The notes under the pieces were generated by a model. That model searched no databases and was not told the origin of the DNA. It saw nothing but the letters and a program-made list of their open reading frames with translations. Positions 21,065 to 35,413 of a stretch of 64,000 bases of DNA are shown here, piece after piece (the stretch's first letter is position 1; the number at the start of each line of letters is the position of its first letter). The position numbers were made by a program, and so were the translations under genes. Source of the DNA: Elusimicrobiota bacterium (lineage in GTDB: Bacteria > Elusimicrobiota > Elusimicrobia > UBA1565 > UBA9628); contig JACRDS010000026.1 of assembly GCA_016212825.1 (NCBI GenBank), positions 31,413 to 95,412 on the forward strand, given 5' to 3'.

Positions 21065-21111
21065 TCCGGGGACACCCACTTATCTCCCGGATTGAGTGAG
21101 TGTCCCCGGAT
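21064..21111. terminator. 12-bp perfect inverted repeat between convergent rluD and the LysR gene. Putative bidirectional terminator
   Basis: ATCCGGGGACAC (21064-21075) pairs with GTGTCCCCGGAT (21100-21111) across a 24-nt loop. The repeat spans exactly from one stop codon to the other. Confidence 0.4.
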
Positions 21112-22004
21112 CAACTAGCCCCGGCCTGGCCGGCGCTGAGGTGCTTCAGGAAGGCCTTCACGGTGCGGTCCCCGCGCCGTATCTTGCGCACCAGGCAGCC
21201 CAGGGGCCGCGAGAGCTTCTGCCCCGAGAAGCGCCGCACGCACAGGCTGCCGGCCTTGGCCTCGGCCGCCACGGTCGCCGCCGGCACGATGGCCACCCCC
21301 ATCCCGGTGGAGACCGCGTTCTTGATGGTCTCGATGTTGTCGAGCTCCATGCGCACACGGGGCCGCACGCCCGCCCGGCGCAGGACCTTGTCCAGGGCCT
21401 TGCGCGTGGGCGTGCCCCGGTCGAAGGCGATGAAGTCCTGCCCGGCCAGGTCGGCCAGGGCCATGGAGCCCCGGCCGGCCAGGGCGTGGCTCCTGGGCAG
21501 GATGAGGACCAGCTCCTCGTCGTGGATCGGGATGACCTGCAGGTCGCGGCGCTTGACCGGGTAGGCCATTAGGCAGAGGTCCGCCCGCCCGCGCAGCAGG
21601 TCGCCGCAGATGCGGCTCGCCTTCTGGTATTCCACCTCCACCTTGACGTCGGGGTGGCGCTTGAGGAAACCCTTGAGGTAGCCCTGCAGGACGTAGGTGC
21701 CCACGCTGTAGATGGCCGCGATGCGTAGGCGCCGGGCCGCCTCGGGAGATTCGGAGTGGATGCGCGCGGTGACCTCCTCATAAGAGGAGACGATGCGCTT
21801 GGCCGCGCCGTAGAAGGCCCTGCCGGCGGGCGTCAGCTTGAGTCGGCGGCCGCCCCGCTCGAGCAGGGGCCGGCCCACGGAGCGCTCCAACTGCTGGAGC
21901 TGCTGGCTCACCGCGGACTGGGTCAGGTAGTTGAGCTCGGCGGCCCGGGAGAAGGAGCCCGTCTCGATGAGGTCCCGGAAGATGCGCAGGGATTCGAGGT
22001 GCAT
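21111..22004 (-). CDS. LysR-family transcriptional regulator
   Basis: N-terminal HTH FSRAAELNYLTQSAVSQQLQQLERSVGRPLLER and a C-terminal substrate-binding domain. Confidence 0.85.
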   Translation of the reverse strand: MHLESLRIFRDLIETGSFSRAAELNYLTQSAVSQQLQQLERSVGRPLLERGGRRLKLTPAGRAFYGAAKRIVSSYEEVTARIHSESPEAARRLRIAAIYSVGTYVLQGYLKGFLKRHPDVKVEVEYQKASRICGDLLRGRADLCLMAYPVKRRDLQVIPIHDEELVLILPRSHALAGRGSMALADLAGQDFIAFDRGTPTRKALDKVLRRAGVRPRVRMELDNIETIKNAVSTGMGVAIVPAATVAAEAKAGSLCVRRFSGQKLSRPLGCLVRKIRRGDRTVKAFLKHLSAGQAGAS

Positions 22005-22018
22005 GGCCCGGGGCCGCC

Positions 22019-22951
22019 TCAGCCGCCCGGTTCCCGGCCTGCGGGCCGGGCCAGTTGCGCCTTTTCCTTGGAGAGGCTGTCGAGGAAGGAGCGTGCCGCC
22101 GGGCTGGGCGGCCCGCCCTTGCGCACCACCGCGGCCACCGGCCGCAGCAGGCGCAGGCCCGAGAAGCGCGCGGCGTGGATCTTCCCGGTCACGATCTCGT
22201 TGCGCACCGCCGCCTCCGGGACGATGGAGACCCCGGTCCCGGCCTGGATGGCGCTCTTGATGGTCTCGATGTTGTCGAGCTCGAGCTTGACCGAGACCCG
22301 CACGTTGTGCGCGCGCAGCACCTTGTCCAGGGCGGCGCGGGTGGGGGCGGCTTCGTCGAAGGCGATGAAGTCCTTGCCGTCGAGCCGGGCCAGCTCCAGG
22401 CGGGGCTCCTGGGCGAGCTCGTGCTCCGGGTGGCAGGCCAGGACCAGCTCGTCGTCGTAGAGGGGGACGATCTCCACGCCGCGGCGGCGCGCGGGGTAGG
22501 CCAGGACCCCCAGGTCGGCCCGGTTGCGTATGATGTCGTCGTAGATCCGGCCCGCCTTCTGGTAGCTGACCGAGAACTTGACGTCCGGGTTGCGGCGGAT
22601 GAACCTCTGGATGTGCCCCTGCAGGACGTAGGTCCCCAGACTGTAGATGGTGGAGATGCGCACCGTGCTCGAGAGGCCCCCGGAGACCGTCTGGAGCTGG
22701 GCCAGGGTCTCGGCATAGGTCTCCAGGATGCGCTTGGCGGTGCGGTAGAAGACCAGGCCCGCGGGCGTCAGGGTCAGGCCGCGGTTGGAGCGGCTGAGCA
22801 GGATGCGGCCCAGGCTGACCTCCAGGTTCTTGATCTGGTGGCTGACCGCCGGCTGGGTGAGGAAGTTGAGCTCCGCCGCCTTGGAGAAGCTGCCGGTGTC
22901 CACGAGGTCCCGGTAGATCTTGAGGGTTTCCAGGAGCATGTCTGTAGGCAT
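22019..22951 (-). CDS. LysR-family transcriptional regulator (tandem paralog), divergent from the hdr/nuo/mvh locus
   Basis: HTH FSKAAELNFLTQPAVSHQIKNLEVSLGRILLSR. Parallel domain layout to the downstream LysR. It may start at the internal ATG at 22939. Confidence 0.85.
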   Translation of the reverse strand: MPTDMLLETLKIYRDLVDTGSFSKAAELNFLTQPAVSHQIKNLEVSLGRILLSRSNRGLTLTPAGLVFYRTAKRILETYAETLAQLQTVSGGLSSTVRISTIYSLGTYVLQGHIQRFIRRNPDVKFSVSYQKAGRIYDDIIRNRADLGVLAYPARRRGVEIVPLYDDELVLACHPEHELAQEPRLELARLDGKDFIAFDEAAPTRAALDKVLRAHNVRVSVKLELDNIETIKSAIQAGTGVSIVPEAAVRNEIVTGKIHAARFSGLRLLRPVAAVVRKGGPPSPAARSFLDSLSKEKAQLARPAGREPGG

Positions 22952-22971
22952 TATAAATAAATTTAATGGAG

Positions 22972-22990
22972 AAATGAAATCAATTCATTT
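22972..22990. promoter_or_regulatory. Putative LysR-type (T-N11-A) operator dyad in the divergent intergenic region
   Basis: AAATGAA-atcaa-TTCATTT, a 7-bp inverted repeat. It contains T-GAAATCAATTC-A (T-N11-A) and sits in an AT-rich 100-bp gap between the LysR gene and hdrC. Confidence 0.4.
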
Positions 22991-23017
22991 GCCGGGCTGC
23001 CGGGGCCGTAGTATCAT
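22989..23017 (+). promoter_or_regulatory. Candidate sigma70-like promoter for the hdr/nuo/mvh operon
   Basis: TTGCCG (22989-22994), a 17-nt spacer, then TATCAT (23012-23017). SD GGAGGG lies 7 nt before the hdrC ATG. Confidence 0.3.
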
Positions 23018-23055
23018 GGCATATGCACATCAGCGGGGCGCCGGAGGGTTAGCGG

Positions 23056-23661
23056 ATGACGACCGAAGGGGCATCAGTGCTGCCGGGAGAAGGGCCATTG
23101 CGCGTTCTGCCAGTATCGCGGGAGAGACTCCGTTTCATCGGGGACATCCGGCAGGAGGGCGGACAGGATGTCGGCTTGTGCTATCAATGCCGGAAGTGCA
23201 CCGCGGGGTGCCCCGTCGTCGATGAGATGGACCTGACTCCCACGCAGGTCATCCATGCGGTCCGCCTGGGGCTGCGCGATCTCGTCCTGGACAGCAAGAC
23301 CATATGGATCTGCGCGTCTTGCGAAACTTGCACGACCAGATGCCCGCAGGAGGTGGACATCGCCAGGGTCATGGATGCGGCCCGCATCCTGGCGCGCCGG
23401 GAGGGCCGGCGCCCGAGAATCCCTGAGGTCGCCGCTTTCCACAGATCCGTGCTCGAGAGCCTCCGGATGTTCGGAAGGCTTTACGAGTTGGGGGCGATCG
23501 GCGCGCTCAAGCTCAGGACCATGAGGTTGACCGAGGACCTCGACCTCGGGCTCAGGATGTTCAAGAAGGGCAAATTCCGATTCATCCCGGCATTCGCGAA
23601 CGTCCTGGCGACCAACAGGATCTTCCGGAGGGTCAAGAAGGCTGAGAGGGCAAGAACATGA
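23056..23661 (+). CDS. Heterodisulfide reductase subunit C-like protein (two [4Fe-4S] ferredoxin motifs)
   Basis: CYQCRKCTAGCPV and CASCETCTTRCPQ, with HdrC-like length and layout. Confidence 0.75.
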   Translation: MTTEGASVLPGEGPLRVLPVSRERLRFIGDIRQEGGQDVGLCYQCRKCTAGCPVVDEMDLTPTQVIHAVRLGLRDLVLDSKTIWICASCETCTTRCPQEVDIARVMDAARILARREGRRPRIPEVAAFHRSVLESLRMFGRLYELGAIGALKLRTMRLTEDLDLGLRMFKKGKFRFIPAFANVLATNRIFRRVKKAERART

Positions 23662-24539
23662 GGTTCGCATATTATCCCGGTTGCTCGCTTCATTCCACGG
23701 GCCGCGAGTACGACGCGTCTTTCCGGGAGGTGTGCGCCAGACTCGGCTTGGAGCCGGACGAGGTCGAAGGCTGGACCTGCTGCGGCGCTTCCAGCGCGCA
23801 TGCGACCTCGCGCCTTCTCTCGGTGGCGCTGGCCGCGGACAACCTCGCCCGCGTCGAGACCGCGGGTCACAAGGACGTCGTCGTGCCGTGCGCCTCGTGT
23901 TTTTCAAGGTTCAAGGACGCCACGCACGAGATCGAGAGCGATCCCGGCATGAAAGCCGAGATCGGCGGGATATTGGGACGGCCCTTCTCCAATTCCGTGA
24001 AAACCATCCACCCGCTGGAACTGCTGGATAAGATGGGAGAGGAGGGGAGGCTCGGGGCGGCGCCGGTCAAGGAGATGCCGGGAGTGAGGGCCGTCTGCTA
24101 CTACGGCTGCCTCTTGACGCGCCCTCCCAAGGTCACCCAATTCGACGATTGCGAGTACCCTATGAGCATGGATAGGCTGCTCGGGAGGTTCGGCGTGCGG
24201 ACGCTGGACTGGTCGTACAAGACCGACTGCTGCGGCGCCGGTTTTGGATTGACTAGGCCCGCGATAGTCTGCAAGCTGGTCAAGAAGATCCTGGACAATG
24301 CCTCGGCGGCGGGCGCCAATGTCGTGGCGGTCGCCTGTCCATTGTGCCATGCCAACCTGGATTCCAGACAGGCTGATTTGAACCGCGCCGGCGGCAACGG
24401 CGCAGGCCCAGGCGCGTACAAGATGCCGGTGCTCTACTTCACGCAGTTGATCGGGCTGGCCCTGGGCGCGGCGCCGGAGAGTCTGGGCCTGGGGAGCCAT
24501 CTGGTCGAGACCGCTCCAGTACTGGGAATGATGAGATGA
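23658..24539 (+). CDS. Heterodisulfide reductase subunit B-like protein (two CCG cysteine-rich domains)
   Basis: Motifs WTCCGAS...VVVPCASCF and DCCGAGFG...VACPLCHANL. Confidence 0.8.
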   Translation: MRFAYYPGCSLHSTGREYDASFREVCARLGLEPDEVEGWTCCGASSAHATSRLLSVALAADNLARVETAGHKDVVVPCASCFSRFKDATHEIESDPGMKAEIGGILGRPFSNSVKTIHPLELLDKMGEEGRLGAAPVKEMPGVRAVCYYGCLLTRPPKVTQFDDCEYPMSMDRLLGRFGVRTLDWSYKTDCCGAGFGLTRPAIVCKLVKKILDNASAAGANVVAVACPLCHANLDSRQADLNRAGGNGAGPGAYKMPVLYFTQLIGLALGAAPESLGLGSHLVETAPVLGMMR

Positions 24540-25453
24540 GCGAAGCAAAAACCAACGACGGGAAAATCGGAGCCGCTCTGGTCGTCGGCGGCGGCATAGG
24601 GGGAATGCAGGCGGCCCTGGATCTGGCCGACTCCGGCATCAAGGTCTATCTGGTCGACAAGGAACCGTCCATCGGCGGAGTCATGGCCAAGCTGGACAAG
24701 ACCTTCCCCACCAACGACTGCGCCATGTGCACGATGGCGCCCAGGCTCGTGGAGGTCGGCAGGAACAAGGATATCGAGATTATCTCGCTGGCCGATGTGG
24801 AGAATCTCAGCGGCGGACCTGGCAATTTCACGCTGACCTTGCGCAAGAAGCCGCGTTTCGTGAAGGAGGACAAATGCACCGGTTGCGGCACCTGCGTGAC
24901 GAATTGTCCCGTGCGAAACGAGATCTATCTGGACGTCAAGCTGGATGAGATAAAGCTTGAGGACGCGGATATGTCCAAGACGACGGCGATACTGGAACGG
25001 TACAAGGGCAGGAAAGAAGACCTGATCGCTATTTTGCAGGACATCAACGCCGAGTACAGGTATCTGCCGGAATTCGTGCTGAAATACATGGCGCGCAAGT
25101 TGGATGTGCCTTACAGCCAAGTATACAGCATCGCCACTTTCTACACCGCTTTCAGCCTGGTGCCCAAAGGGAAATACAAGATTTCCGTGTGCCTGGGAAC
25201 GGCCTGTCATGTCAGAGGGGCTCAGCGTATCATGGAGAGCCTGGAAAGAGAGCTGGATATCAAGAACGGGGGGACGACCAAGGACATGTTGTTCAGCCTG
25301 GAATCCGTCAGGTGCATCGGGTGCTGCGGTCTGGCTCCGGTTTTCGCGATCAACGAGGAGCTTTACGGAAAGGTCTCGCAGGGGAAGGTCCCGCAAATAA
25401 TCGAAAAATACCGGAAGGCGGAAGTCAAGGACAAGGCCTATGCAAAAACTTAA
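24536..25453 (+). CDS. Fusion protein. The N-terminal about 130 aa is the first half of a HdrA FAD-binding domain. The C-terminal about 170 aa is a NuoE/HoxE-like thioredoxin-fold [2Fe-2S] subunit
   Basis: GAALVVGGGIGGMQAALDLADSGIKVYLVDKEPSIGGVMAKLDKTFPTNDCAMC and CTGCGTCVTNCPV are HdrA N-terminal hallmarks. SVCLGTACHVRGA...VRCIGCCGLAPV carries the NuoE Cys pattern. Confidence 0.7.
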   Translation: MSEAKTNDGKIGAALVVGGGIGGMQAALDLADSGIKVYLVDKEPSIGGVMAKLDKTFPTNDCAMCTMAPRLVEVGRNKDIEIISLADVENLSGGPGNFTLTLRKKPRFVKEDKCTGCGTCVTNCPVRNEIYLDVKLDEIKLEDADMSKTTAILERYKGRKEDLIAILQDINAEYRYLPEFVLKYMARKLDVPYSQVYSIATFYTAFSLVPKGKYKISVCLGTACHVRGAQRIMESLERELDIKNGGTTKDMLFSLESVRCIGCCGLAPVFAINEELYGKVSQGKVPQIIEKYRKAEVKDKAYAKT

Positions 25454-25823
25454 GCCTGAGGATCTGGGCAAGATCAGCGAAAGGATGAAGGGCGTGGTCA
25501 ATCTGCGCGACGGCGCGTATTGCGCAAAGATCACCGTTCATATGGGGACATGCGGGATAGCCGCCGGCGCCCGGAAAGTGATGACGGCCCTTCTGGCCGT
25601 TGTGGCGGAGAAGGGGAACAAGGATGTCCTGGTCACGACTTCGGGCTGCGCCGGGCTGTGCGGCCGCGAACCGATGGCCACTGTCGAACTGCGGGGTGAG
25701 GCGCCCGTGAAATACGGCAACCTGGACGAGGCCAAGATTAAAGAGATCTTCGACCAGCATGTCCTGGGCAAGAAGATCGTGACTGAATACGCGATCGGCA
25801 TAGGCAGTGAAAGGGTTTCCTAA
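25440..25823 (+). CDS. Small thioredoxin-like [2Fe-2S] ferredoxin (HndB-like)
   Basis: 127 aa. VHMGTCGIAAGARKV...TSGCAGLCGREP. This is the position a HndB/HydB-N type protein usually occupies, between NuoE-like and NuoF-like genes. Confidence 0.6.
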   Translation: MQKLKPEDLGKISERMKGVVNLRDGAYCAKITVHMGTCGIAAGARKVMTALLAVVAEKGNKDVLVTTSGCAGLCGREPMATVELRGEAPVKYGNLDEAKIKEIFDQHVLGKKIVTEYAIGIGSERVS

Positions 25824-27627
25824 GGATACCGTGGGAAATACAACCAGGACTCATTTGATGGTCTGCGCGGGTACGGGCTGCGTTTCGGCCAAGTGCTTTA
25901 AAATCAAGGAAGCCTTGGAGCGCGAGCTCAAGAAACATGATCTTTGCGAAGAGGTGCAGATCGTCATGACCGGGTGCAACGGATTCTGCGCCCAGGGCCC
26001 GATCATGGTCGTGCAGCCCGAGGGCATCTTCTACAACATGCTCAAAGAGGAAGACATCCCGCATCTGGTCGCGGAGCACTTCCTGAAAGGACGGCCGGTA
26101 AAGAAGCTGATGTTCACCCCGCCTCAGGAAAAAGCCCCTGTCCCGCTGATGAAGGATATCGGGTTCTTCAGCAAACAGTCGCTGCTGATATTGAGAAACA
26201 GGGGTCTGATAGACCCTGAGAATATCGACGAGTATATCGCCAGGAACGGTTATGCCGCCTTCTCCAAAGCCGTGACCTCGATGGCGCCGGATGAAGTCAT
26301 CGCAGAGATCAGGAATTCCGGTCTGAGAGGCAGGGGCGGCGCCGGATTCCCTACCGCCAAGAAGTGGGAGCACTGCAGGCATGCCCCAGGAGAGCCGAAA
26401 TACATCATATGCAACGCCGACGAGGGCGACCCCGGCTGTTTCCAGGACAGGAGCATACTCGAGGGCGACCCGCATTCGGTGATCGAAGGCATGCTCATAG
26501 GGGCGTATGCGATAGGTTCAAGGCACGGGTATATCTATGTGCGGAATGAATATCCTCTGGCGATCAAGAGATTCTCGACAGCATTGAGCCAGGCGCGGCA
26601 ATACGGCCTGTTGGGCGATGATGTCCTGGGGACGAAATTTTCTTTTGACATCAGCATAAGCAGGGGGGCGGGCGCGTTCGTATGCGGAGAATCAAGCGCC
26701 TTGATGGCTTCCATCGAAGGCAAGATCGGGGAGCCGAGGTATAAGCATATCCACGCCACGGAGAAGGGGTTGTGGGATAAGCCGACCGTCCTGAATAATG
26801 TCAAGACCTGGGCCAGCGTCCCTTCGATCATAAGGCACGGCGCGGAGTGGTTCGCCAAGATCGGGACGGAGACTTCCAAGGGGACGATGGTCTTCTCGCT
26901 TGTGGGCAAGATCAAGAATACCGGGCTTATCGAGGTCCCGATGGGCATCTCGCTCAGGGAGATCATCTACGATATAGGAGAGGGTCTCATAGGCGACAGG
27001 AAATTCAAAGCGGTCCAGACCGGCGGGCCGTCAGGCGGATGCCTGCCTGAATCGTGCCTTGATTTGCCGGTGGATTACGAATCATTGACGGAGGCCGGCT
27101 CCATGATGGGTTCCGGCGGGATGATCGTGCTGGATGAAGACAACTGCATGGTGGACGTGGCGAGGTATTTCCTGGACTTTTTGAAGGGAGAATCCTGCGG
27201 CAAGTGCACGGCCTGCAGGGATGGCATCGAGGCGATGTACGAGTGTTTGAACGATATCTGCGAAGGGAAAGGGAAGGAGAAAGACATCGAGATGCTCGAG
27301 GAATTGGCCGGGGCAGTCAAGGATGCCTCCCTTTGCGGACTAGGCGCCTCAGCGCCCAATCCGGTTTTGAGCACGATACGCTACTTCCGGGACGAGTATG
27401 ACGCCCATATCCGGGACAAGAAGTGCCCTGCGGGAGTCTGCAAAGCGTTGATCCAATACTCCATAGATGCCGAGAAGTGCACCGGGTGCACGCTGTGCGC
27501 CAAGAAGTGCCCCAGCGAGGCGATCACCGGAGAGCGCAAGGCCAAGCATGCCATCGACCTGGAGAAGTGCATCAAGTGCGGCGTCTGCCGTGAGGTATGC
27601 AAATTCAAGGCGGTCGTGGTCAACTGA
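25807..27627 (+). CDS. NuoF-like NAD(H)-binding FMN/[4Fe-4S] flavoprotein. It has an N-terminal thioredoxin-like 2Fe-2S domain and a C-terminal 2x[4Fe-4S] ferredoxin domain (HndC/HydB-like)
   Basis: GLRGRGGAGFPTAKKW (NADH/FMN site), ESCGKCTACRDG (N3 cluster), and C-terminal CTGCTLCAKKCP / CIKCGVCREVC. The start is uncertain: GTG 25807 or ATG 25858. Confidence 0.85.
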   Translation: MKGFPKDTVGNTTRTHLMVCAGTGCVSAKCFKIKEALERELKKHDLCEEVQIVMTGCNGFCAQGPIMVVQPEGIFYNMLKEEDIPHLVAEHFLKGRPVKKLMFTPPQEKAPVPLMKDIGFFSKQSLLILRNRGLIDPENIDEYIARNGYAAFSKAVTSMAPDEVIAEIRNSGLRGRGGAGFPTAKKWEHCRHAPGEPKYIICNADEGDPGCFQDRSILEGDPHSVIEGMLIGAYAIGSRHGYIYVRNEYPLAIKRFSTALSQARQYGLLGDDVLGTKFSFDISISRGAGAFVCGESSALMASIEGKIGEPRYKHIHATEKGLWDKPTVLNNVKTWASVPSIIRHGAEWFAKIGTETSKGTMVFSLVGKIKNTGLIEVPMGISLREIIYDIGEGLIGDRKFKAVQTGGPSGGCLPESCLDLPVDYESLTEAGSMMGSGGMIVLDEDNCMVDVARYFLDFLKGESCGKCTACRDGIEAMYECLNDICEGKGKEKDIEMLEELAGAVKDASLCGLGASAPNPVLSTIRYFRDEYDAHIRDKKCPAGVCKALIQYSIDAEKCTGCTLCAKKCPSEAITGERKAKHAIDLEKCIKCGVCREVCKFKAVVVN

Positions 27628-27644
27628 CCCCGGCAAGGACAAGG

Positions 27645-27992
27645 ATGAAGCTCAGGGAGATCTGCGAGATACTGGAAGCGGACATCGTCCATGGGGAGGA
27701 TCCGGACCGGGAGATCGACAAGGTGGGGGCCGCAGACCTGATGAGCGATGTGCTGACCCACAGCACGCGGGGTTCGCTGCTGCTCACGGGCCTGACGAAT
27801 TCCCAGGTGATCCGCACCGCTGAGATGTCGGATATCGAGGCCGTTTGTTTCGTGAGGGGGAAAAGGCCGCAGGCCGGCGTCATAAAGCTTGGAGAGGAAA
27901 TGGGCATCCCCGTGCTGGTGACGAGATTCTCGATGTACGAAGCCTGCGGGAAGCTGTACATGAAAGGGCTGCGGGGCTGTGAGCATAATTAG
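27645..27992 (+). CDS. DRTGG domain protein
   Basis: DLMSDVLTHSTRGSLLLTGLTN...GIPVLVTRFSMYEACGKLY. This is the small regulatory protein typical of NuoEF-containing hydrogenase loci. Confidence 0.6.
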   Translation: MKLREICEILEADIVHGEDPDREIDKVGAADLMSDVLTHSTRGSLLLTGLTNSQVIRTAEMSDIEAVCFVRGKRPQAGVIKLGEEMGIPVLVTRFSMYEACGKLYMKGLRGCEHN

Positions 27993-27994
27993 GC

Positions 27995-28909
27995 ATGAAA
28001 GAGGTCACCAAGATCCAGGAGCTCGTGTACGAGCTGAGGATGCGGGACGTGATGAGGAAGGATGTGATCTCCGTCAGCCCCGACATGCAGATGGGCCGGT
28101 TGAGGGAATTGTTCAAGACCAAGCGCATATCCGGGACGCCCGTGGTCGACGGCGGCGGGCTGGTCGGGATCGTGAGCATAGAGGATTTCATCAAGTGGCT
28201 CTCCGGCGGCGGCGGGGAGTGCCGGATCTCCGAGAAGATGACGCGGCGGGTGGAGACGTTCTACGACGACGAGGCGCTGGTGCATGCCTTGACCAAGATG
28301 GAGAGATCCGGTTACGGCAGGTTCCCGATCATCGACCGGCAGACCGGCGGAATGTGCGGCATCGTGACCAAAGGGAACATCATCGAGGGTCTGCTCAAGA
28401 AGATCGAGATCGACTATCACGAGGAGGAGGTCCGCAAGTACCGGGCCAGCCACATCTTCGAGGACATCCGGGCGGACAAGTCCACGCTGATCTGTCAGTA
28501 CCGGATCGCCGGGAGGAAGTTGACCGAAGCGGGCGAGACCGCCAGCGGGCTGAAAACGACGTTGAAGAGGTTGGGCTTCCATCCGGACATCGTCAGGAGG
28601 TCCGCGATCATCGCCTATGAGGCGGAGACCAACGTCATCATCTATGCCAAGGAAGGGAAGATGATCGTGAAGGTGGAGCCGGCCGAGATATACATGAAGG
28701 TCGAAGACAAGGGCCCGGGCATCCCCGACGTCGAAAAAGTGCTGGAGCCCGGGTTTTCGACCGCCCCGGACTGGGTCAGGGAGCTCGGGTTCGGCGCCGG
28801 GATGGGGCTGCCCAATATCAAGAAGTGTTCGGATCGGATGGTCTTGAATTCCACCGTCGGCAAGGGCACCTGCCTTGAGGCGACCGTGGTCATAGGGCCG
28901 ACGCGATGA
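27995..28909 (+). CDS. CBS-pair plus histidine-kinase-like ATPase (anti-sigma-factor / Ser-protein-kinase-like) protein
   Basis: Two CBS motifs (VMRKDVISVSPD..., GRFPIIDRQTGGMCGIVTKGNII) and a C-terminal HATPase_c (VEDKGPGIPDVEKVLEPGFST...GAGMGLP). Confidence 0.7.
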   Translation: MKEVTKIQELVYELRMRDVMRKDVISVSPDMQMGRLRELFKTKRISGTPVVDGGGLVGIVSIEDFIKWLSGGGGECRISEKMTRRVETFYDDEALVHALTKMERSGYGRFPIIDRQTGGMCGIVTKGNIIEGLLKKIEIDYHEEEVRKYRASHIFEDIRADKSTLICQYRIAGRKLTEAGETASGLKTTLKRLGFHPDIVRRSAIIAYEAETNVIIYAKEGKMIVKVEPAEIYMKVEDKGPGIPDVEKVLEPGFSTAPDWVRELGFGAGMGLPNIKKCSDRMVLNSTVGKGTCLEATVVIGPTR

Positions 28910-29250
28910 AGCTGCAAAAGCTGATCGAGCGCATGGATCTCGAAGTGAGAAGCGGGCGCGGCGCTCCGGATGTGGAAATCCGCCGCGGCTACGTGAGCGA
29001 TCTGTTGAGCGACGTCATCGCGCATGCTCAAGAGGCTGAGTTGTGGATCACGCTTCAGACGCACGTCAACATCGTGGCCGTGGCCAGCATGAAAGGTCTG
29101 GCCGGCATCATCTTGGTCCAAGGCCGGGAGCCGGAGCGGGCCACGGTCGAGAGGGCGGAAAAGGAAAAAGTCCCCATTCTGGTCACGAAACTTCCCGCTT
29201 ATGAAATGGCAGGGAAGCTCTATGACCTGCTGAATGCTGAAAAGGGTTAG
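28906..29250 (+). CDS. DRTGG domain protein (second copy)
   Basis: VSDLLSDVIAHAQEAELWITLQTHVN...VPILVTKLPAYEMAGKLY, parallel to the first DRTGG protein. Confidence 0.6.
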   Translation: MKLQKLIERMDLEVRSGRGAPDVEIRRGYVSDLLSDVIAHAQEAELWITLQTHVNIVAVASMKGLAGIILVQGREPERATVERAEKEKVPILVTKLPAYEMAGKLYDLLNAEKG

Positions 29251-29977
29251 AGGCGATTTGCATATCCACACTTGTTTGTCCCCATGCGCCGATGACGGGA
29301 TGACGCCCGCCGCCATCGTCAGGGAGGCGCGGAGGAAGCAGGTGGGGTTGGTCGGCATCTGCGACCATAATTCCATGGAGAATGTGGAAGCGGTGATGAG
29401 GGCGGGCGAACGGGAGAATGTCGGGGTCTTGGGCGGGATGGAGATCACAAGCAAAGAGGAAGTGCATATCCTGGCCGTCTGTGATGGCCTGGCCCCGCTG
29501 GGCAACATGCAGAAGACCTTGTATGAGCACCTGGAGGGAGAGAACGACGAAAGCAGGTTCGGCCCGCAGGACATCGTCAACGAATTCGATGAGAAGACCG
29601 GCTCGAACAGCAGGCTCTTGATCGGCGCCACGGATCTGGGCATCCAGAACGTGGTCGAGTTGATCCGCAGCGCCGGGGGGCTGGCGATCGCCTCGCACAT
29701 CGACAGGGAGGGCTTCAGCATCATGTCCCAGCTGGGTTTCATACCCGAGTCGCTGCGTCTTGACGGCTTGGAAGTGTCTCCCCTGACCACGGTCGAGGCG
29801 GCGCGGCGGAGATTCCCGGATATCGGCAAGTACCCTTTGCTGCGCTCGTCGGATGCGCATTCCCTGGGCGACATCGGGAGGCAGACCACGACGTTCCTGG
29901 TGGCGGATATGAGTTTCGCCGAGATCCGGAAGGCGCTGGCGGGAGAGGATGGCAGAAGGATCGAATATCAGGCCTGA
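29234..29977 (+). CDS. PHP-domain phosphoesterase
   Basis: The N-terminus DLHIHTCLSPCAD plus downstream His/Asp motifs (ICDHNSMEN, IASHIDREG, SSDAHS). Confidence 0.7.
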   Translation: MLKRVRGDLHIHTCLSPCADDGMTPAAIVREARRKQVGLVGICDHNSMENVEAVMRAGERENVGVLGGMEITSKEEVHILAVCDGLAPLGNMQKTLYEHLEGENDESRFGPQDIVNEFDEKTGSNSRLLIGATDLGIQNVVELIRSAGGLAIASHIDREGFSIMSQLGFIPESLRLDGLEVSPLTTVEAARRRFPDIGKYPLLRSSDAHSLGDIGRQTTTFLVADMSFAEIRKALAGEDGRRIEYQA

Positions 29978-29983
29978 GCGGAT

Positions 29984-30445
29984 TTGGAAGACCTATCTTT
30001 GCATGTTCTTGATATCGCTGAAAACTCGATCAGGGCGCTCGCGGAGAATGTCGTGATCAGGATCATCGAGGAGCCCGGGAAGGACCTGCTCACCCTGGAG
30101 ATCGAAGACGACGGACAAGGGATGGATGAGGGACTGCTCGAGAAGGCGCTGGATCCGTTCTTCACGACCAAGGCCGGCAAGAGGGTGGGGCTGGGGCTTC
30201 CGCTTTTGAGCCAGGCGGCCAGGGCCGGCGGAGGAGATATGCAGATCGAATCCGGGCCCGGAGCGGGCACCCGGATAAGGGCCACATTCAGATACAGCCA
30301 TCCTGACAGAAAGCCTTTGGGGGATATGCCGGCCACCATGCGGGCTTTGATGGCCGCAAATCCGGCCGTGAATTTCGTGTTTGTGCACAAGAAAGAGGGC
30401 GAAACGCACCGCGTAGAGAGCCGCGAAATGGGGTCCCAAGGATAA
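29984..30445 (+). CDS. Stand-alone histidine-kinase-like ATPase (HATPase_c) protein
   Basis: EIEDDGQGMDEGLLEKALDPFFTTK...GLGLPL. TTG start with an upstream SD. Confidence 0.6.
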   Translation: MEDLSLHVLDIAENSIRALAENVVIRIIEEPGKDLLTLEIEDDGQGMDEGLLEKALDPFFTTKAGKRVGLGLPLLSQAARAGGGDMQIESGPGAGTRIRATFRYSHPDRKPLGDMPATMRALMAANPAVNFVFVHKKEGETHRVESREMGSQG

Positions 30446-30448
30446 CCA

Positions 30449-33400
30449 ATGGCGAGTTCGAACATGAAGACGGATTTCATCATCAATGGGAAAGAGGCGT
30501 CGGTCGAGGGGGCGGCTACGGTGCTGGAGGCCTGCGCGAAACTGAGCCTGAAGATACCGACGCTCTGCGCGCACAAGGCGCTGCTCCCGTACGGAGCCTG
30601 CAGGCTCTGCCTGGTGGAGATCGGCAAGCCCCCCTACGGCAAGATCCAGACGGCGTGCACTTACCCCCTGAAGCCGGGGCTGGTCGTCTCCACGGACACG
30701 GAAAGGATCATGAAAGCCAGGAAGATCGTAATGGAACTCCTCCTGGCCAGGTGCCCGGATGTGAAGGCGATACAAGATCTGGCCGGAGAGCTCGGAGTCG
30801 CCGGCACGAGGTTCCACAAGAAGGACAGCGACTGCATACTGTGCGGCATGTGCATCAGGGTCTGCCGGGAACGGATGGGGGTCGAGGCATTGGGCTTCGC
30901 CAACCGGGGTTCCAAGAGAGAAGTGAGGCCTCCTTTCGACGCCCTCTCCGAGTTCTGCCAGGCCTGCGGCGCCTGTGAATTCATATGTCCGACGGGAAAG
31001 ATGAAGGTGCTGGAGGTGGGAAGAAGGGCGGCGCGGCCGATACCTTTCGAATTCAACGAGGGCTTGATCTCCAGGCCCGCGGTGCATATTCCCTACCCCC
31101 AGGCCGTCCCCAACAAGGCCGCGCTGGACGGCAGGTACTGCGTCCGCCTGCTGAAGGACAAATGCGGAATATGCCAGGTGTTCTGCGAAGCCGGCGCGAT
31201 AGACTATGAGCAGAAAGAGGAGCGCATCGAGTTGAAGGCGGGCGCCGTGATCCTGGCTCCGGGATTCGAGCTCTTCGACGCCAAGCTCAAGGGTGAGTTG
31301 GGTTACGGACGCTATCCCAACGTCATCACGAGCCTGGAGTTCGAGCGGATATTGAACGCCTCCGGGCCGTTCTCGGGCAAGGTGCTCAGGCCTTCCGACC
31401 GGCGCCATCCCAAGAAGATCGCCTTCATCCAATGCGTCGGGTCCCGGGATTGCGACAACAACTATTGCTCCTCCGTGTGCTGTATGTATGCGACCAAGGA
31501 AGCCATCATCGCGATGGAACACGAGAAGGGCCTGGAGTGCGCCATCTTCTTCATCGACCTGAGGGCATTCGGCAAGGGGTTCGACGCCTATTATGAGCGG
31601 GCCAAGAAGGCCGGCGTGAGGTATGTCCGATGCCGTCCGTCTTCCATCAAGGAGGACCCCTCAAGCCGGGATCTGGAAGTGAGGTACGAGGCCGAGGACG
31701 GGACGGTGGTGTCCGAGGGGTTCGATCTCGTGGTGCTTTCCAGCGGACTCAGACCCACGCGGGAAGCCCGGGATATGGCCAAGACCTTCGGCCTGTCCCT
31801 CAATGAGCACGGTTTCTGCAGGACTGGGACGTTCGCCCCGGTGGAGACGGGGCGCGCGGGGGTCTACGTGTGCGGGCCGTTCACGGAGCCCAAAGACATC
31901 CCGGAAACGGTCATGCAGGCCAGTGCCGCCGCGGCCAAGACTTTGTCCCTGCTGTCGTCGGCGCGGGGTTCGCTGATCGAGCCCAAGGGATTCCCCCCGG
32001 AGAAGGATGTCTCCGGGCGGCCGCCCAGGATCGGAGTCTTCGTCTGCCACTGCGGCACCAATATCGCGGGCGTGGTCAATGTGCCGGAAGTCGTCGAGTA
32101 TGTGAAGGGATTGCCGGATGTGGCCTATGCCGAGAACGATCTCTACACCTGCTCGAACGATGCTCAAGAAAGGATCAAGCAGTTGGTCCGGGAGCACGAT
32201 TTGAATCGGGTCGTGGTGGCGTCCTGCACGCCCAGGACGCACGAGCCCCTGTTCCGGAACACCATCCGGGAAGCGGGCGTGAATCCGTATCTTTTCGAAA
32301 TGGCCAATATCAGGGACCAATGCTCGTGGGTCCACATGCACGAGCCGGAGCAGGCCACGCGCAAGGCCAAGGACCTTCTGCGGATGGCCATCGCCAAGGC
32401 CCGGCTCCTGGAGCCGCTCCAGCGCCGGACCATGAAGGTCCATCCCGACGCCCTCGTGATCGGAGGGGGGGTGAGCGGCATGACCGCCGCGCTCGACATG
32501 GCGAAGCAGGGCATCACGGTGCACCTGGTGGAGCGCGAAGGCGCGCTCGGCGGCGGCCTGCGCAGGACGAGATACCTTCTGGATGGAGAGGACCCCAAGG
32601 GCGAGCTCGACCGACTGGTGGCGAACGTGCTCGGAGAGAAGCTGATCCGGGTCCATCTGAATTCCAAGATCGTCGCGATGGAGGGAAGCTGGGGCAATTT
32701 CAAGACGAAGGTCTCGGGCGTCGGCAACGGCGGCGCGGCGGAGTTCGGCCATGGCGTGGTGGTGGTGGCGACCGGCGCGCGGGAATACCAGCCTCAGGAG
32801 TATCTCTACGGGAAGGATGAGAGGGTGACGACCCAGCTCGAGCTGGAGTCCCTCATCGCGGACGGCAAGTTCAGGGCGAAATCCGTGGTGATGATCCAGT
32901 GCGTCGGTTCCCGGAACGATGAGCATCCCTATTGCAGCAGGGTCTGCTGCACCGAGGCGGTGAAAAACGCCCTGAAGATCAAGGCCACGAGCCCCGACTC
33001 CGAGGTGTACGTCCTTTATAGGGACGTCCGGACCTACGGCTTCCGCGAGCAGTACTATCGTCAGGCCCGGGAGAAGGGCGTGGTCTTCCTGCGCTACGAC
33101 GACGACAAAAAACCCGCGGTCGAGGTCAAGGAAGGCGGATTGCAGGTCTCTGCTTTCGACCCCATACTCAAGACGACCGTCTCCATCGACGCGGACCTGC
33201 TGGTCCTCTCGGCGGGGATCGTCGCCAATCCCGACAGCGCCGAGGTGGGGCAGATGCTGAAGGTGCCCTTGAACCAGGACAAGTTCTTCTTGGAAGCGCA
33301 CATGAAGCTGAGGCCCGTGGATTTCGCGAGCGATGGGATATTCCTCTGCGGCCTGGCGCATTCGCCGAAGGATCTGACCGAGTGCCTGATGCAGGCCAGC

Positions 33401-33751
33401 GGCGCCGCCGCGAGGGCCTCGGCGGTGGCGCTCAAGGGCAGCGTCGAGCTCGAGGCCAACGTTTCCCGGGTCCTCGACGAGAACTGCGACGGCTGCGCCT
33501 ATTGCGTGGACCCTTGCCCGTACAAGGCCATCACGCTCATCGAATACATGTTCAACGGCGCCATCAAGAAGACGGTGGAAGCCAACGAGAGCGTGTGCAA
33601 GGGCTGCGGGGTCTGCCAGGCCACCTGCCCCAAGAAGGGCATCGCCATAATGGGCTTCAGGCTGGAGCAGATATCCGCCATGGCCGAGGCCGCCCTGCAG
33701 GCGGGCGGAGCGCCGAGCGGAAAACCGGCCGAAGAGCTCGTGCGGCAGTAG
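30449..33751 (+). CDS. 1,100-aa multi-domain iron-sulfur flavoprotein. It has a NuoG/HydA-N-like 2Fe-2S plus [4Fe-4S] module, then the C-terminal half of a HdrA FAD domain, then a second complete HdrA-like unit with a C-terminal 2x[4Fe-4S] domain
   Basis: FIINGKEASVEGAATVLEACAKLSLKIPTLCAHKALLPYGACRLCLVEI (2Fe-2S). CILCGMCIRVC / CQACGACEFICP. IAFIQCVGSRDCDNNYCSSVCCMYATKEA (HdrA signature). DALVIGGGVSGMTAALDMAKQG (FAD-binding motif). VVMIQCVGSRNDEHPYCSRVCCTEA (second HdrA signature). CDGCAYCVDPCP / CKGCGVCQATCP. Confidence 0.8.
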   Translation: MASSNMKTDFIINGKEASVEGAATVLEACAKLSLKIPTLCAHKALLPYGACRLCLVEIGKPPYGKIQTACTYPLKPGLVVSTDTERIMKARKIVMELLLARCPDVKAIQDLAGELGVAGTRFHKKDSDCILCGMCIRVCRERMGVEALGFANRGSKREVRPPFDALSEFCQACGACEFICPTGKMKVLEVGRRAARPIPFEFNEGLISRPAVHIPYPQAVPNKAALDGRYCVRLLKDKCGICQVFCEAGAIDYEQKEERIELKAGAVILAPGFELFDAKLKGELGYGRYPNVITSLEFERILNASGPFSGKVLRPSDRRHPKKIAFIQCVGSRDCDNNYCSSVCCMYATKEAIIAMEHEKGLECAIFFIDLRAFGKGFDAYYERAKKAGVRYVRCRPSSIKEDPSSRDLEVRYEAEDGTVVSEGFDLVVLSSGLRPTREARDMAKTFGLSLNEHGFCRTGTFAPVETGRAGVYVCGPFTEPKDIPETVMQASAAAAKTLSLLSSARGSLIEPKGFPPEKDVSGRPPRIGVFVCHCGTNIAGVVNVPEVVEYVKGLPDVAYAENDLYTCSNDAQERIKQLVREHDLNRVVVASCTPRTHEPLFRNTIREAGVNPYLFEMANIRDQCSWVHMHEPEQATRKAKDLLRMAIAKARLLEPLQRRTMKVHPDALVIGGGVSGMTAALDMAKQGITVHLVEREGALGGGLRRTRYLLDGEDPKGELDRLVANVLGEKLIRVHLNSKIVAMEGSWGNFKTKVSGVGNGGAAEFGHGVVVVATGAREYQPQEYLYGKDERVTTQLELESLIADGKFRAKSVVMIQCVGSRNDEHPYCSRVCCTEAVKNALKIKATSPDSEVYVLYRDVRTYGFREQYYRQAREKGVVFLRYDDDKKPAVEVKEGGLQVSAFDPILKTTVSIDADLLVLSAGIVANPDSAEVGQMLKVPLNQDKFFLEAHMKLRPVDFASDGIFLCGLAHSPKDLTECLMQASGAAARASAVALKGSVELEANVSRVLDENCDGCAYCVDPCPYKAITLIEYMFNGAIKKTVEANESVCKGCGVCQATCPKKGIAIMGFRLEQISAMAEAALQAGGAPSGKPAEELVRQ

Positions 33752-33754
33752 GAG

Positions 33755-34213
33755 ATGATCATGGCTGAGACAGTGATGGAGCAGGAACAGCAGGCGGAGA
33801 TCCTCAATCCGGACCCGGTGGTCATCGCCTTCTGCTGCAATTGGTGCTCCTACACCGGCGCGGACCTGGCCGGGACCTCCCGGCTCCAGTATCCGCCCCA
33901 GATCCGCATCATCCGGGTCATGTGTTCGGGCATGGTGCACCCCAACCTGGTCATAGACGCCCTGACCAAGGGCGCCGACGGCGTGATGATCTGCGGCTGC
34001 CACCTGGGCGACTGCCATTACATAGACGGCAACTACAAGACCGAGAAGCGGGCCGATGCCATCAAGCTCATGTTGGAGGACTTCGGCCTGGAGCCCGAGC
34101 GCTTCCGCCTGGAGTGGGTCTCCGCGTCGGAGGGCCCGAAGTTCGCCCAAGTCATGACCGACATGGTCGCGGCCTTGAAAAGGCTGCCGCCGAGCTCCTA
34201 CAAGGTGGGGTGA
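33755..34213 (+). CDS. mvhD: MvhD-like hydrogenase/heterodisulfide reductase iron-sulfur subunit
   Basis: IAFCCNWCSYTGADLAG...IRVMCSGMV...DGVMICGCHLGDCHY. The likely start is ATG 33761. Confidence 0.8.
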   Translation: MIMAETVMEQEQQAEILNPDPVVIAFCCNWCSYTGADLAGTSRLQYPPQIRIIRVMCSGMVHPNLVIDALTKGADGVMICGCHLGDCHYIDGNYKTEKRADAIKLMLEDFGLEPERFRLEWVSASEGPKFAQVMTDMVAALKRLPPSSYKVG

Positions 34214-34218
34214 GCGTT

Positions 34219-34416
34219 ATGACCCAGAGCGCGAGATTCTTCGACGACAAGAAGTTCATGTGGGATGGGAAAGTCTACGAGGGACGCTCGGAGGCCGAGG
34301 AGTCCGAGCGGGGCTACAGGAAGGACGCCTTTGAGACGCGGGTCGTGGAGGACGGCGGGAAGTTCCTGGTCTATTCCCGCCGGGTGGCCGCCCAGCAGAC
34401 GGCCGTAGAGGGATAA
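34219..34416 (+). CDS. Small hypothetical protein (65 aa) between mvhD and the hydrogenase small subunit gene
   Basis: ATG 34219 has an upstream GGTGGGG. It reads MTQSARFFDDKKFMWDGKVYEGRSE... and has no recognisable motif. The track shows it only as the tail of a longer overlapping ORF. Confidence 0.3.
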   Translation: MTQSARFFDDKKFMWDGKVYEGRSEAEESERGYRKDAFETRVVEDGGKFLVYSRRVAAQQTAVEG

Positions 34417-34438: not shown

Positions 34439-35413
34439 ATGCCTGTGAAAGTCGCGGAGGAATGGCTTAACATCTGCGGTGGCTGCGAGGTCAGCATACT
34501 CGACATCGGCGAGCCGCTCTTGGACCTGCTGCCGAACCTGGAGTTCGTGCACATGCCCGTGCTCATGGACCACAAGTACCACGGCCAGACCGGCGAGGGC
34601 GATCCGCACAAGATCGACATCCCGGACGCGGACGTGGGCATCATCTCCGGCGGCATCCGCAACGAGAAGGAGAAGCAGGTCGCCCTGGCGATGCGGGCCA
34701 AGTGCAAGACCGTGGTGGCCCTGGGCTCCTGCGCCTGCTACGGCGGCATCCCGGCTTTGGCCAACATGTGGTCCCTGACCGACATGTGCGACAAGGTCTA
34801 CAAGGACAGCAAGTCCACGGAGAAGGCCGACACGCCCAAGACCGACCTGCCGCCGCTCCTGGACCGCGTCTACGCCCTCGACGAGGTCATCAAGGTGGAC
34901 CTGGCCATCCCGGGCTGCCCCACCTCCTCGGACTGGATCAAGGAAGCCCTGCTCTCCTTGCTCTCGGGCAAGCCCTTCGCCATGCCGGATAAGTCCGTGT
35001 GCGACGAGTGCCCGACCAAGCGCGAGAAGAAGGCCTCCGGCGGCACTATCAAGCGGCCCCTGGAGAACATGGCCTTCAAGCAGGACGCGCCCTGGGAGGA
35101 GACCCGCTGCTTCATGGAGCAGGGCTACCTGTGCCTGGGCCCGGTGACCCGGGCCGGCTGCGCGGGCATGAGCATGGAGGCGGGCGAGGCCAAGGTGCCG
35201 CGCTGCATCAAGGGCTACATGCCCTGCCGGGGCTGCTTCGGCCCGGTCAAGAAGGGCTCCAACCCGCTCGTGGACATGATGGGCGCGCTGTCCTCCATCG
35301 GCCTCAAGGCCGACCAGGTCAGCGACCGCCGCGCCATGCTCAGCCGCTACGTGGGCGGCCACGGCATGCTCAAGCCGCTTCCGGCCAAGGCGCCGGCGCC
35401 GGTGAAGAAGTAG
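34439..35413 (+). CDS. mvhG: [NiFe] hydrogenase small subunit (group 3, MvhG-like)
   Basis: NICGGCEVS, LGSCACYGGIP, GCPTSSDW and the C-terminal Cys cluster CRGCFGP. Confidence 0.85.
   Translation: MPVKVAEEWLNICGGCEVSILDIGEPLLDLLPNLEFVHMPVLMDHKYHGQTGEGDPHKIDIPDADVGIISGGIRNEKEKQVALAMRAKCKTVVALGSCACYGGIPALANMWSLTDMCDKVYKDSKSTEKADTPKTDLPPLLDRVYALDEVIKVDLAIPGCPTSSDWIKEALLSLLSGKPFAMPDKSVCDECPTKREKKASGGTIKRPLENMAFKQDAPWEETRCFMEQGYLCLGPVTRAGCAGMSMEAGEAKVPRCIKGYMPCRGCFGPVKKGSNPLVDMMGALSSIGLKADQVSDRRAMLSRYVGGHGMLKPLPAKAPAPVKK

Follow-up and report, generated by a model that had tools for sequence, protein, structure and literature searches.

Horizontally acquired segments of a genome carry atypical base composition and codon usage and are later ameliorated, in the framework of Lawrence and Ochman. 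At capsule (cps) and O-antigen loci, cassettes switch by homologous recombination in the conserved genes that flank them. The locus described here resembles both situations. The DNA analysed is a 64-kb stretch of chromosome from an Elusimicrobia metagenome-assembled genome (MAG), referred to as the window, and the element in question is an island of eleven plus-strand genes (positions 23056-33751; 10.7 kb) at the front of an operon that continues into [NiFe]-hydrogenase genes. As in the amelioration framework, the island has lowered third-position GC (GC3), foreign codons for Arg, Asp, Asn and His, an incongruent phylogeny, a patchy presence among relatives, and a drift toward host composition. 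Unlike typical acquired segments, it is without an integrase, tRNA site or direct repeats, and, unlike an insertion at a neutral site, it appears as a replacement made in frame and inside an operon, with a native promoter before it, native genes after it and a likely source in the same phylum. As at cps and O-antigen loci, conserved flanks (LysR and promoter on one side, mvhD-mvhA on the other) bracket alternative gene sets that are non-homologous or distantly homologous; unlike at those loci, the cargo is the front end of a redox enzyme, and the crossovers are placed from similarity profiles. The explanation that we favour, with a probability of about 72%, is that the front end of this operon was replaced horizontally, by DNA that has since been ameliorated in part and is itself a mosaic. 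The processes involved (horizontal transfer, homologous replacement, amelioration) are known ones, and the locus is a new and well-resolved instance of them, not a new kind of biology.

Two described enzyme systems are the closest to what the operon encodes. MvhADG-HdrABC is an H2:heterodisulfide/ferredoxin bifurcating complex (PDB 5odc; Kaster et al. 2011, as cited in PMC9304861). Bam-Bfu, the closest described architecture, combines BfuABC with an HdrA module, and it belongs to the Bfu family of electron-bifurcating enzymes of the HydABC type (Schut et al. 2022, PMC9304861). The HdrABC-MvhADG gene set is encoded together in the window, with an HdrA (FAD plus Fe-S), an HdrB with two CCG domains, HdrC, MvhD, MvhG, MvhA and a maturation protease, as in the MvhADG-HdrABC system. 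The differences from that system are that HdrA is split over two genes and extended, that an NADH/ferredoxin module is added, and that the host is a bacterium without methanogenesis. Genes were called from frame-specific GC and annotated with Pfam; AGR denotes the share of AGA and AGG among Arg codons. The island consists of the following genes.

23056-23661, plus strand: hdrC (Fer4_17/Fer4_8); GC3 0.81, AGR 13/28
23658-24539, plus strand: hdrB (two CCG domains); hdrC and hdrB have GC3 0.81-0.82 and together AGR 23/46
24536-25453, plus strand: N-terminal FAD/4Fe-4S piece of HdrA fused to NuoE (BfuC-like), with 2Fe-2S_thioredx at residues 151-293
25440-25823, plus strand: small 2Fe-2S-thioredoxin-like gene, 127 aa, with a weak thioredoxin-like 2Fe-2S match (E 0.0015)
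25807-27627, plus strand: NuoF/HydB-type (BfuB-like) NADH/FMN subunit; GC3 0.75, AGR 18/27; the public annotation begins 17 codons later
27597-27992, plus strand: DRTGG gene
27995-28909, plus strand: CBS plus HATPase gene; GC3 0.89
28906-29250, plus strand: second DRTGG gene
29234-29977, plus strand: PHP gene
29984-30445, plus strand: HATPase gene
30449-33751, plus strand: large fusion, 1100 aa, of a NuoG-type N-terminus (2Fe-2S plus 4Fe-4S, BfuA-like) and the remainder of HdrA

The resemblance to Bam-Bfu is most complete in the NuoF-type subunit, which has the full BfuB set of Pfam domains (2Fe-2S_thioredx, Complex1_51K, NADH_4Fe-4S and two Fer4). It aligns end to end with subunit B of the bifurcating NiFe-HydABCSL (7t2r_B; E 4e-248) and also with 7q4v_B, and all five ligands of its B2 cluster are identical to C438, C476, H525, C531 and C536 (A. 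mobile numbering, PMC9304861). According to the same source, a His among the B2 [2Fe-2S] ligands is absent from non-bifurcating homologues. BfuC- and BfuA-type parts are present at the domain level, as a NuoE-like 2Fe-2S domain and a NuoG-type N-terminal Fe-S domain; unusually, both are fused to pieces of HdrA. The large fusion protein matches the methanogen HdrA 5odc_A in three stretches (E 2e-163), and its residues 8-191 match the NuoG-like chain 9mqx_A and HydA N-termini, with Fer2_4 and Fer4 at residues 8-182. As in Bam-Bfu, these parts are combined with HdrA, HdrBC-type and MvhD-type proteins. In contrast to Bam-Bfu, where the partner is a tungsten benzoyl-CoA reductase, the partner here is the MvhGA [NiFe] hydrogenase, BfuC and BfuA are each joined to one half of a split HdrA, and a five-gene DRTGG/CBS-ATPase/PHP/ATPase cassette is embedded among the redox genes. 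From these domains and ligands, the module is predicted to carry out NAD(H)/ferredoxin-coupled bifurcation. A literature search found neither a description nor a biochemical study of an Hdr-NuoEF-Mvh cluster, and no description of the DRTGG/PHP cassette; text searches of PMC9304861 gave no Hdr-Mvh-type Bfu class.

The compositional island is confirmed. Raw GC per kilobase is 0.56-0.64 at 23-35 kb, against 0.65-0.77 upstream (1-23 kb) and 0.60-0.74 downstream; when pooled, GC comes to 0.605 in the island, as against 0.723 in the left flank and 0.672 in the right one. The background for codon statistics was the 39 flanking genes of the window, and the island lies outside their distribution. GC3 is 0.72-0.89 in the 11 island genes (mean 0.787) and 0.86-0.97 in the flank genes (mean 0.928, sd 0.032; Mann-Whitney p = 7e-7), with z-scores of -1.0 to -6.3 for individual island genes, and the gap is kept at four-fold sites (0.84 vs 0.94; p = 2e-5). 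Within the island, the left 4.5 kb from hdrC to nuoF holds the lowest values (0.74-0.81; 0.75-0.76 for the HdrA-N/NuoE fusion and the 127-aa gene), and the sensor/regulatory cassette (27597-30445) ranges from 0.72 to 0.89. The CBS plus HATPase gene is an outlier in this respect, at 0.89 as compared to 0.72-0.85. By the Karlin codon-bias distance, island genes lie 0.27-0.63 from the flanks, and flank genes mostly 0.13-0.38, with a maximum of 0.54 (p = 5e-6). AGR codons make up 49% of Arg codons in the island vs 8% in the flanks, and the shares of GAT (40% vs 9%), AAT (41% vs 6%), CAT (54% vs 17%), AAA (23% vs 7%) and ATA (19% vs 7%) follow the same direction; TAT and TTG are likewise several-fold commoner in the island. 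The tetranucleotide distance of the island to the rest of the window (0.033) is the largest among 10.7-kb chunks, the others having 0.008-0.023.

These statistics bear out the original prediction, in which a GC and codon-usage island had been proposed to begin at the AT-rich promoter and to cover the hdrCB, nuoEF-like and sensor genes, with Arg codons nearly always CGC or CGG in the flanks and AGR codons frequent inside. The gradual return of GC in the 3' part of the fusion gene, also noted there, is reproduced: GC3 climbs from ~0.82 to 0.92 in that gene, and the island ends essentially at 33751, as originally given. The GC of 67-72% that had been given for mvhG and mvhA needs revision, as their raw GC is 0.62-0.70; host-likeness of the right flank shows in GC3 instead (mvhD 0.91, mvhG 0.96, mvhA 0.97; hycI within 0.88-0.97). 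Raw GC masks the step at the mvh genes because the Mvh proteins have low GC at first and second codon positions.

Other compositional measures were less specific or were noted in passing. Dinucleotide delta* is highest for the island (84) and nearly equal (81) for a giant-gene region at 1-12 kb; the dinucleotide signature was rejected as an island marker, since it discriminates weakly and the giant repetitive gene is almost as deviant. That gene is a 3491-aa plus-strand ORF (1427-11902; GC ~75%), rich in Ala, Gly and Pro, with CarboxypepD_reg and FlgD_ig-like domains near its C-terminus. The coding strand of the island region (23000-34000) is purine-loaded, with a GC skew of +0.04 to +0.23 and a mostly positive AT skew; in most of the flanks, both skews are weak or negative, so that the island differs from them in more than GC content.

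The step is particular to this window and is not a property of the gene family. Related module loci were found by a one-genome-per-species scan with the fusion protein, and their gene order was read by local tblastn; the relatives compared comprise 80 loci with a related module (L001-L080) and the Elusimicrobia loci L083-L088 and L090. GC3 is uniform over all 15 genes in the 80 related loci, GC-rich hosts included (0.91-0.98 in L010; 0.85-0.91 in L044), which places the discontinuity here and not in the family. In three loci of GC-rich hosts (L044, L036 and L057), the first eleven genes keep 12-29% AGR, and mvhD-mvhG-mvhA-hycI have 0-5%. This excess hints that front end and hydrogenase back end have often had separate histories, and that front-end swapping is recurrent.

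The composition changes at two narrow boundaries, which lie inside a locus otherwise shared with Elusimicrobia relatives. Between 23056 and 37455 the genes form one tight array, all on the plus strand, and the flanks and boundaries are as follows.

21111-22004 and 22019-22951, minus strand: two tandem LysR genes (HTH_1 and LysR_substrate), divergent from the operon; GC3 0.95-0.96, AGR 3/65
22952-23020, plus strand: AT-rich promoter/operator, conserved and AT-rich in GC-rich relatives also
23020-23056: left junction; conservation with relatives ends at ~23020, and hdrC has island composition from 23056 on
31700-31770: internal mosaic boundary in the fusion gene, where affinity to the Elusimicrobiota contig L090 ends
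33575-33755: right junction, where module-type sequence gives way to native sequence of Elusimicrobia type; residue 1042 of the fusion protein is the last informative one of module type
33755-34213, plus strand: mvhD, native right flank in the same operon
34219-34416, plus strand: conserved 65-aa ORF (tblastn E down to 1e-23; no Pfam match)
34439-35413, plus strand: mvhG
35436-36881, plus strand: mvhA
36934-37455, plus strand: hycI protease gene

In L083, L084 and L085-L087, which we call the short-form relatives (contigs of 65-69% GC), the order is a divergent LysR gene, a ~380-aa Fe-S protein, an unsplit ~1050-aa HdrA, mvhD, a 62-66-aa ORF, mvhG, mvhA and hycI. Thus, only two genes lie between promoter and mvhD, and the genes of these loci have GC3 of 0.91-0.98 and few AGR codons. 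Their HdrA corresponds to residues 24-126 of the window HdrA-N/NuoE protein (the HdrA N-terminus; 65-70% identity) and, in the large fusion protein, to residues 160-1098 (58-61%), and their mvhD, mvhG and mvhA are 80-88% identical to those of the window. Across the fusion gene, DNA identity between window and relatives is 59-75%, compared with 62-84% among the relatives themselves; from ~33750 on, it is 78-88%, the same as among the relatives. The informative sites divide in the same place. The fusion protein has 120 module-type sites vs 10 short-form sites, and Elusimicrobia-type sites prevail over module-type sites in mvhD (3:0), mvhG (12:4), mvhA (30:7) and hycI (10:4), for a sum of 55:15. 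A crossover inside the fusion gene near 33.15-33.45 kb, which the GC3 climb and a few shared C-terminal residues had raised, was rejected, as sites stay module-type to residue 1042. Only Elusimicrobia relatives share the tail extension at the C-terminus of the fusion protein, and of the whole gene this tail alone looks native. The phylogenetic signal therefore switches where composition does, at ~23020-23056 and ~33575-33755.

The left boundary falls between the promoter and hdrC. An alignment of the window with L083, L084, L085 and L088 shows a conserved promoter block, TTAT-AG..CTAATAGG..ATGAA..ATTCATTTG ... TA.CATG, so the AT-rich segment at 22952-23020, originally taken for the start of the low-GC stretch, is native DNA conserved in GC-rich relatives. 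One LysR gene occupies the matching position in L083-L088, at 52-55% identity, and no LysR gene beside the module was detected in L001-L080. In the window itself, the tandem LysR copies have 73% DNA identity at a spacing of 935 nt. On the right, mvhD, mvhG, mvhA and hycI (together AGR 4/56) are 80-88% identical to proteins of named Elusimicrobia MAGs; MvhA has matches at 83-90%, those from named Elusimicrobia MAGs at 85-87%, in contrast to NuoF, whose best non-self match is 78%, with no other Elusimicrobia. With native-type DNA on both sides, a native scaffold is the simplest reading. The idea of a horizontal graft onto a native mvh locus, hdrCB included, is supported: GC3 and AGR of hdrC and hdrB are island-like, and the scaffold from LysR to mvh is native.

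The same end pattern would be produced by the reverse polarity of events, in which a whole hdr-to-hycI operon was imported from a lower-GC relative and its mvhD-hycI part was later overwritten by DNA of GC-rich relatives. The module does normally travel with its own mvhDGA genes, as this requires. Two events are needed instead of one, however, and on the left both the LysR gene and the promoter are of native type and conserved in relatives, and we regard this history as improbable.

A third state of the locus is found in L088, another Elusimicrobia MAG, with an mvhA 86% identical to that of the window. It has the LysR gene, a cNMP-binding gene, a stand-alone NuoE (GC3 0.53) and a DRTGG gene (GC3 0.73), followed by the first ~190 nt of the CBS-ATPase gene, which a deletion has joined to codon 33 of mvhD. 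The remnant is 80% DNA-identical to 27645-28184 of the window, and neighbouring L088 genes have GC3 of ~0.89. Within L088:1666-3095, NuoE is 48% identical to the window NuoE domain and DRTGG 73%, the CBS-ATPase 5' fragment is frameshifted, and mvhD is truncated N-terminally. The clade thus holds three locus states, the short form, the full module and the deleted remnant, and the locus differs from the window in its closest relatives (short form in L083, L084 and L085-L087; remnant in L088). L088 shows that the front-end slot is a rearrangement hot spot.

The L088 remnant also bears on whether the island is an assembly or binning artefact, a chimeric contig joined from two organisms. In favour of this, the contig is metagenome-assembled, and its right junction lies in conserved sequence. 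An artefact would nevertheless need two joins that return to the same host, the left one in non-conserved intergenic DNA, and reading frames are intact over both junctions. Further, island GC is steadily above that of L090 in aligned windows, as for DNA evolving inside a GC-rich host, and L088 is an independent assembly with related low-GC module DNA at the same locus, which makes a chimera less likely still. We consider an artefact very improbable.

A relative of the donor type is found in L090, an Elusimicrobiota contig of 56.6% GC with uniform GC3 (0.64-0.78) and AGR of ~50%. Its proteins are identical to those of "Elusimicrobia/Elusimicrobiota bacterium" MAGs (e.g. MBU2575031.1 and MBU2573602.1), and its gene order is DRTGG-CBS/ATPase-DRTGG-PHP-ATPase-fusion-mvhD-66-aa ORF-mvhG-mvhA-hycI. 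Since its mvh genes are 80-83% identical to those of the window, L090 belongs to the same clade. Its fusion protein (P0242) is the best non-self match of the window fusion protein (68%), and its cassette proteins are the closest known to those of the window (CBS-ATPase 83%, PHP 78.5%, ATPase 72%, DRTGG 68-70%). DNA identity is 75-90% at 27.6-31.3 kb and 56-72% at 31.4-33.7 kb. The CBS plus HATPase gene is the gene nearest to L090, with up to 90% DNA identity at 28.5-28.8 kb.

The two loci also share codon states. At conserved residues, the same codon is used in 63-72% of cases in 27.6-31.7 kb (65-72% within the cassette) vs 44-57% in the mvh genes; for the choice between AGR and CGN at conserved Arg residues, the five cassette genes have 37 agreements and 7 disagreements, and in mvhA 14 of 22 disagree. 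Third-position differences that place G/C in the window, as against the reverse, stand at 161:79 for 27.6-31.7 kb; for 31.7-33.75 kb the ratio is 100:29, and for the mvh genes 246:21. This bias, which favours G/C throughout and is milder in the island than in mvh, fits partial amelioration within a GC-rich host.

Neighbour-joining (NJ) trees (100 bootstraps, small taxon sets) are incongruent between module and flank genes. For mvhG plus mvhA, the window falls inside the Elusimicrobia clade (bootstrap 100) and groups with its GC-rich members, L090 excluded (86). For the cassette genes, and for fusion residues 165-420, the window groups with L090 (100 in each case), and a grouping of the window with the short-form HdrA has bootstrap 0 in any partition. 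The fusion gene is not of one piece. L090 is by far the closest relative over residues 1 to ~420 (68-86% aa), and over residues 440-1045 it is no nearer than other phyla (bootstrap 8). Judged from these alignments, the fusion gene is a mosaic in which the recombinant in the 440-1045 stretch would be either the window or L090.

These data decide largely against a direct inter-phylum transfer of the whole island from a low-GC anaerobe, for which a Firmicute had originally been suggested. Such a transfer has points in its favour: the nearest NuoF homologues lie on contigs of 42-44% GC (78% and 74%), with Aerophobetes and Latescibacterota next; the module is present in many phyla, one Eubacteriales MAG included; and a simple NJ tree places the whole fusion protein with Latescibacterota/Actinomycetota. 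That last affiliation, which the first NJ trees of the whole fusion protein suggested as the donor, was superseded when L090 entered the trees, in which cassette and 5' third of the fusion gene join the Elusimicrobiota contig with bootstrap 100 and 75-90% DNA identity. Consistently, island GC3 (0.79) and AGR (49%) are near those of L090 (0.70 and ~50%) and far from the 42%-GC contigs (GC3 0.31-0.46). No Firmicute is among the top matches; the top named ones are Elusimicrobia (the L090 lineage), Aerophobetes, Latescibacterota, Actinomycetota and Planctomycetota, and most metagenome matches carry no taxon. A donor in another phylum is thus unsupported for the right half of the island and may apply to the left half; for the island as a whole, we judge it unlikely.

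A further alternative is vertical inheritance from a moderate-GC ancestor, with a front end that lagged behind the GC rise of its host through little GC-biased gene conversion or weaker codon selection. The module divergence between window and L090 is within the range expected from mvhA, the low-GC state is present in two GC-rich genomes (the window and L088), and several other GC-rich hosts keep 12-29% AGR in the front end vs 0-5% in mvh, all of which vertical descent would accommodate. On the other hand, the module attains host GC3 in other GC-rich hosts, so there is no intrinsic brake; the mvhGA tree joins the window to GC-rich genomes (86) and the module tree joins it to L090 (100); and the step coincides within ~150 nt with the phylogenetic switch, in an island whose fusion gene is mosaic. 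Vertical descent appears to us rather improbable.

Horizontal replacement of the front end is left as the preferred explanation, and several points weigh against it. The host "genome" background is just the 53 kb of flanks, and the trees rest on NJ with small taxon sets. L090, at 68-83% protein identity, would be a relative of the donor and not the donor itself. The L090 contig begins at the DRTGG gene, so that the left half of the island is uncovered, and the sequence that precedes DRTGG there is not this NuoF. The left 4.5 kb (hdrC-nuoF) had no close relative in the searches, and its source could lie outside Elusimicrobia: the best non-self match of NuoF among 5.8 billion proteins is 78%, with this and a 74% match on unbinned contigs of 42-44% GC and Aerophobetes and Latescibacterota next at ~70%, and a metagenome scan with NuoF gave nothing above 67% among the matches listed. 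Divergence between the window and L090 modules is about what co-divergence with mvhA predicts, and sequence distance alone therefore cannot part transfer within the clade from vertical descent. Because this calibration does not decide, the case for transfer rests on composition, on shared codon states and on the 86% bootstrap. Parsimony of locus states is likewise tied, at two module gains vs two short-form gains. The direction of the event is set by composition: short-form genes are at host equilibrium, and module genes, in both the window and L088, are not.

The clade has a conserved scaffold of divergent LysR, AT-rich promoter, variable front end, and then mvhD, the small ORF, mvhG, mvhA and hycI. 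In the sequence of events that we propose, an 11-gene module from a lower-GC lineage would have taken the place of the genes that the native scaffold had carried from its promoter to mvhD. The most likely source of the right half is a moderate-GC (~57%) member of the same Elusimicrobia clade that carried the module with its own mvh genes. Since such modules usually move together with mvh genes of their own, the event would be a like-for-like replacement of a front end, and would not have joined an NADH module to a hydrogenase for the first time. The probable mechanism is a double crossover in homologous flanks, the left one in the promoter/5' region and the right one either where mvhD begins or in the conserved 3' part of hdrA. 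There is no indication of integration by a mobile element: integrase or transposase Pfam domains are absent from the 11 island genes, the window holds no tRNA, and no flanking repeats were found at the island, which hence lacks the marks of a classical mobile genomic island (integrase/transposase, attachment site, direct repeats). The block would since have been drifting to host composition, as a mosaic of at least two or three segments. As a consequence, an H2-linked HdrA/Mvh complex would have been exchanged for one that has its own regulatory cassette besides HdrBC and an NADH/ferredoxin module of the Bfu type. If so, the locus is a sequence-resolved case of anaerobes rewiring energy metabolism, in which an electron-input module and its regulators were exchanged under an existing promoter and the hydrogenase genes were kept.

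The split of HdrA, with which the graft had originally been said to fit, has another origin. The fusion protein has more than 560 relatives (one genome per species), none above 64% identity, in Latescibacterota, Actinomycetota, Planctomycetota, Gemmatimonadota, Acidobacteriota, Bacteroidota, Spirochaetota, Chloroflexota, Bipolaricaulota and others. Many of these have the order hdrC-hdrB-hdrA'/nuoE-small-nuoF-cassette-fusion-mvhD-mvhG-mvhA-hycI, which is found in more than ten phyla; hdrC and hdrB likewise precede the module in loci of Planctomycetota, Gemmatimonadota and Thermoanaerobaculia (49-58% identity), and the 127-aa gene at 25440-25823 is kept across phyla (46-69%). Because the split and the mvh linkage are conserved this widely, the module came already split, and the graft was not the cause. 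Judged from gene order, split HdrA and mvh linkage are old, conserved features of a mobile cluster. The analysis corrects two inferences: a Firmicute donor does not follow from low GC, and the split of the gene is not due to the graft.

A broader interpretation, which we put forward tentatively and from comparative gene content, is that the scaffold from the LysR promoter to mvhDGA might serve as a docking site at which front ends are swapped between lineages, and that the module might represent a widespread family that fuses a Bfu-type core and a split HdrA into a [NiFe]-hydrogenase supercomplex with a kinase/phosphatase-like sensor cassette. This Bfu-HdrA-Mvh cluster with its embedded sensor cassette is a broadly distributed candidate for biochemical study and the more interesting by-product of the analysis.

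Several minor observations concern the Hdr/Mvh genes and the remaining flanks. The 65-aa ORF between mvhD and mvhG, which looks unannotated, is kept in place across most related loci, in all phyla, and looks like a 16th conserved gene of the cluster. Database labels on MvhA homologues read "F420-non-reducing hydrogenase large subunit". A second, canonical cluster, hdrC-hdrB-hdrA (654 aa)-mvhD-mvhG-mvhA-hycI, is present at L085:13525-20346 on the minus strand, and such a cluster or a nearby hdrCBA is found at L083:1-2800. The second Hdr/Mvh sets of L085 and L083 are just 33-55% identical to the window genes; such paralogous sets in Elusimicrobia relatives could be recombination partners. The wider flanks hold housekeeping genes, among them those for enolase, Lgt, PEPCK, TCA-cycle enzymes and acetate kinase. 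The host assignment rests on these and on the NuoF and fusion proteins, which have 100% identity to NCBI proteins of an "Elusimicrobia bacterium" MAG. At 18571-20132 on the plus strand, two Lgt (prolipoprotein diacylglyceryl transferase) paralogues adjoin and overlap. A second, small low-GC patch is located at 55698-56710 on the plus strand (GC ~0.60; GC3 of its second gene 0.69), between hypA and a PTA-like gene; in it, an ImmA/IrrE (Peptidase_M78) gene comes after an XRE-type HTH gene, a combination typical of regulators in mobile elements.

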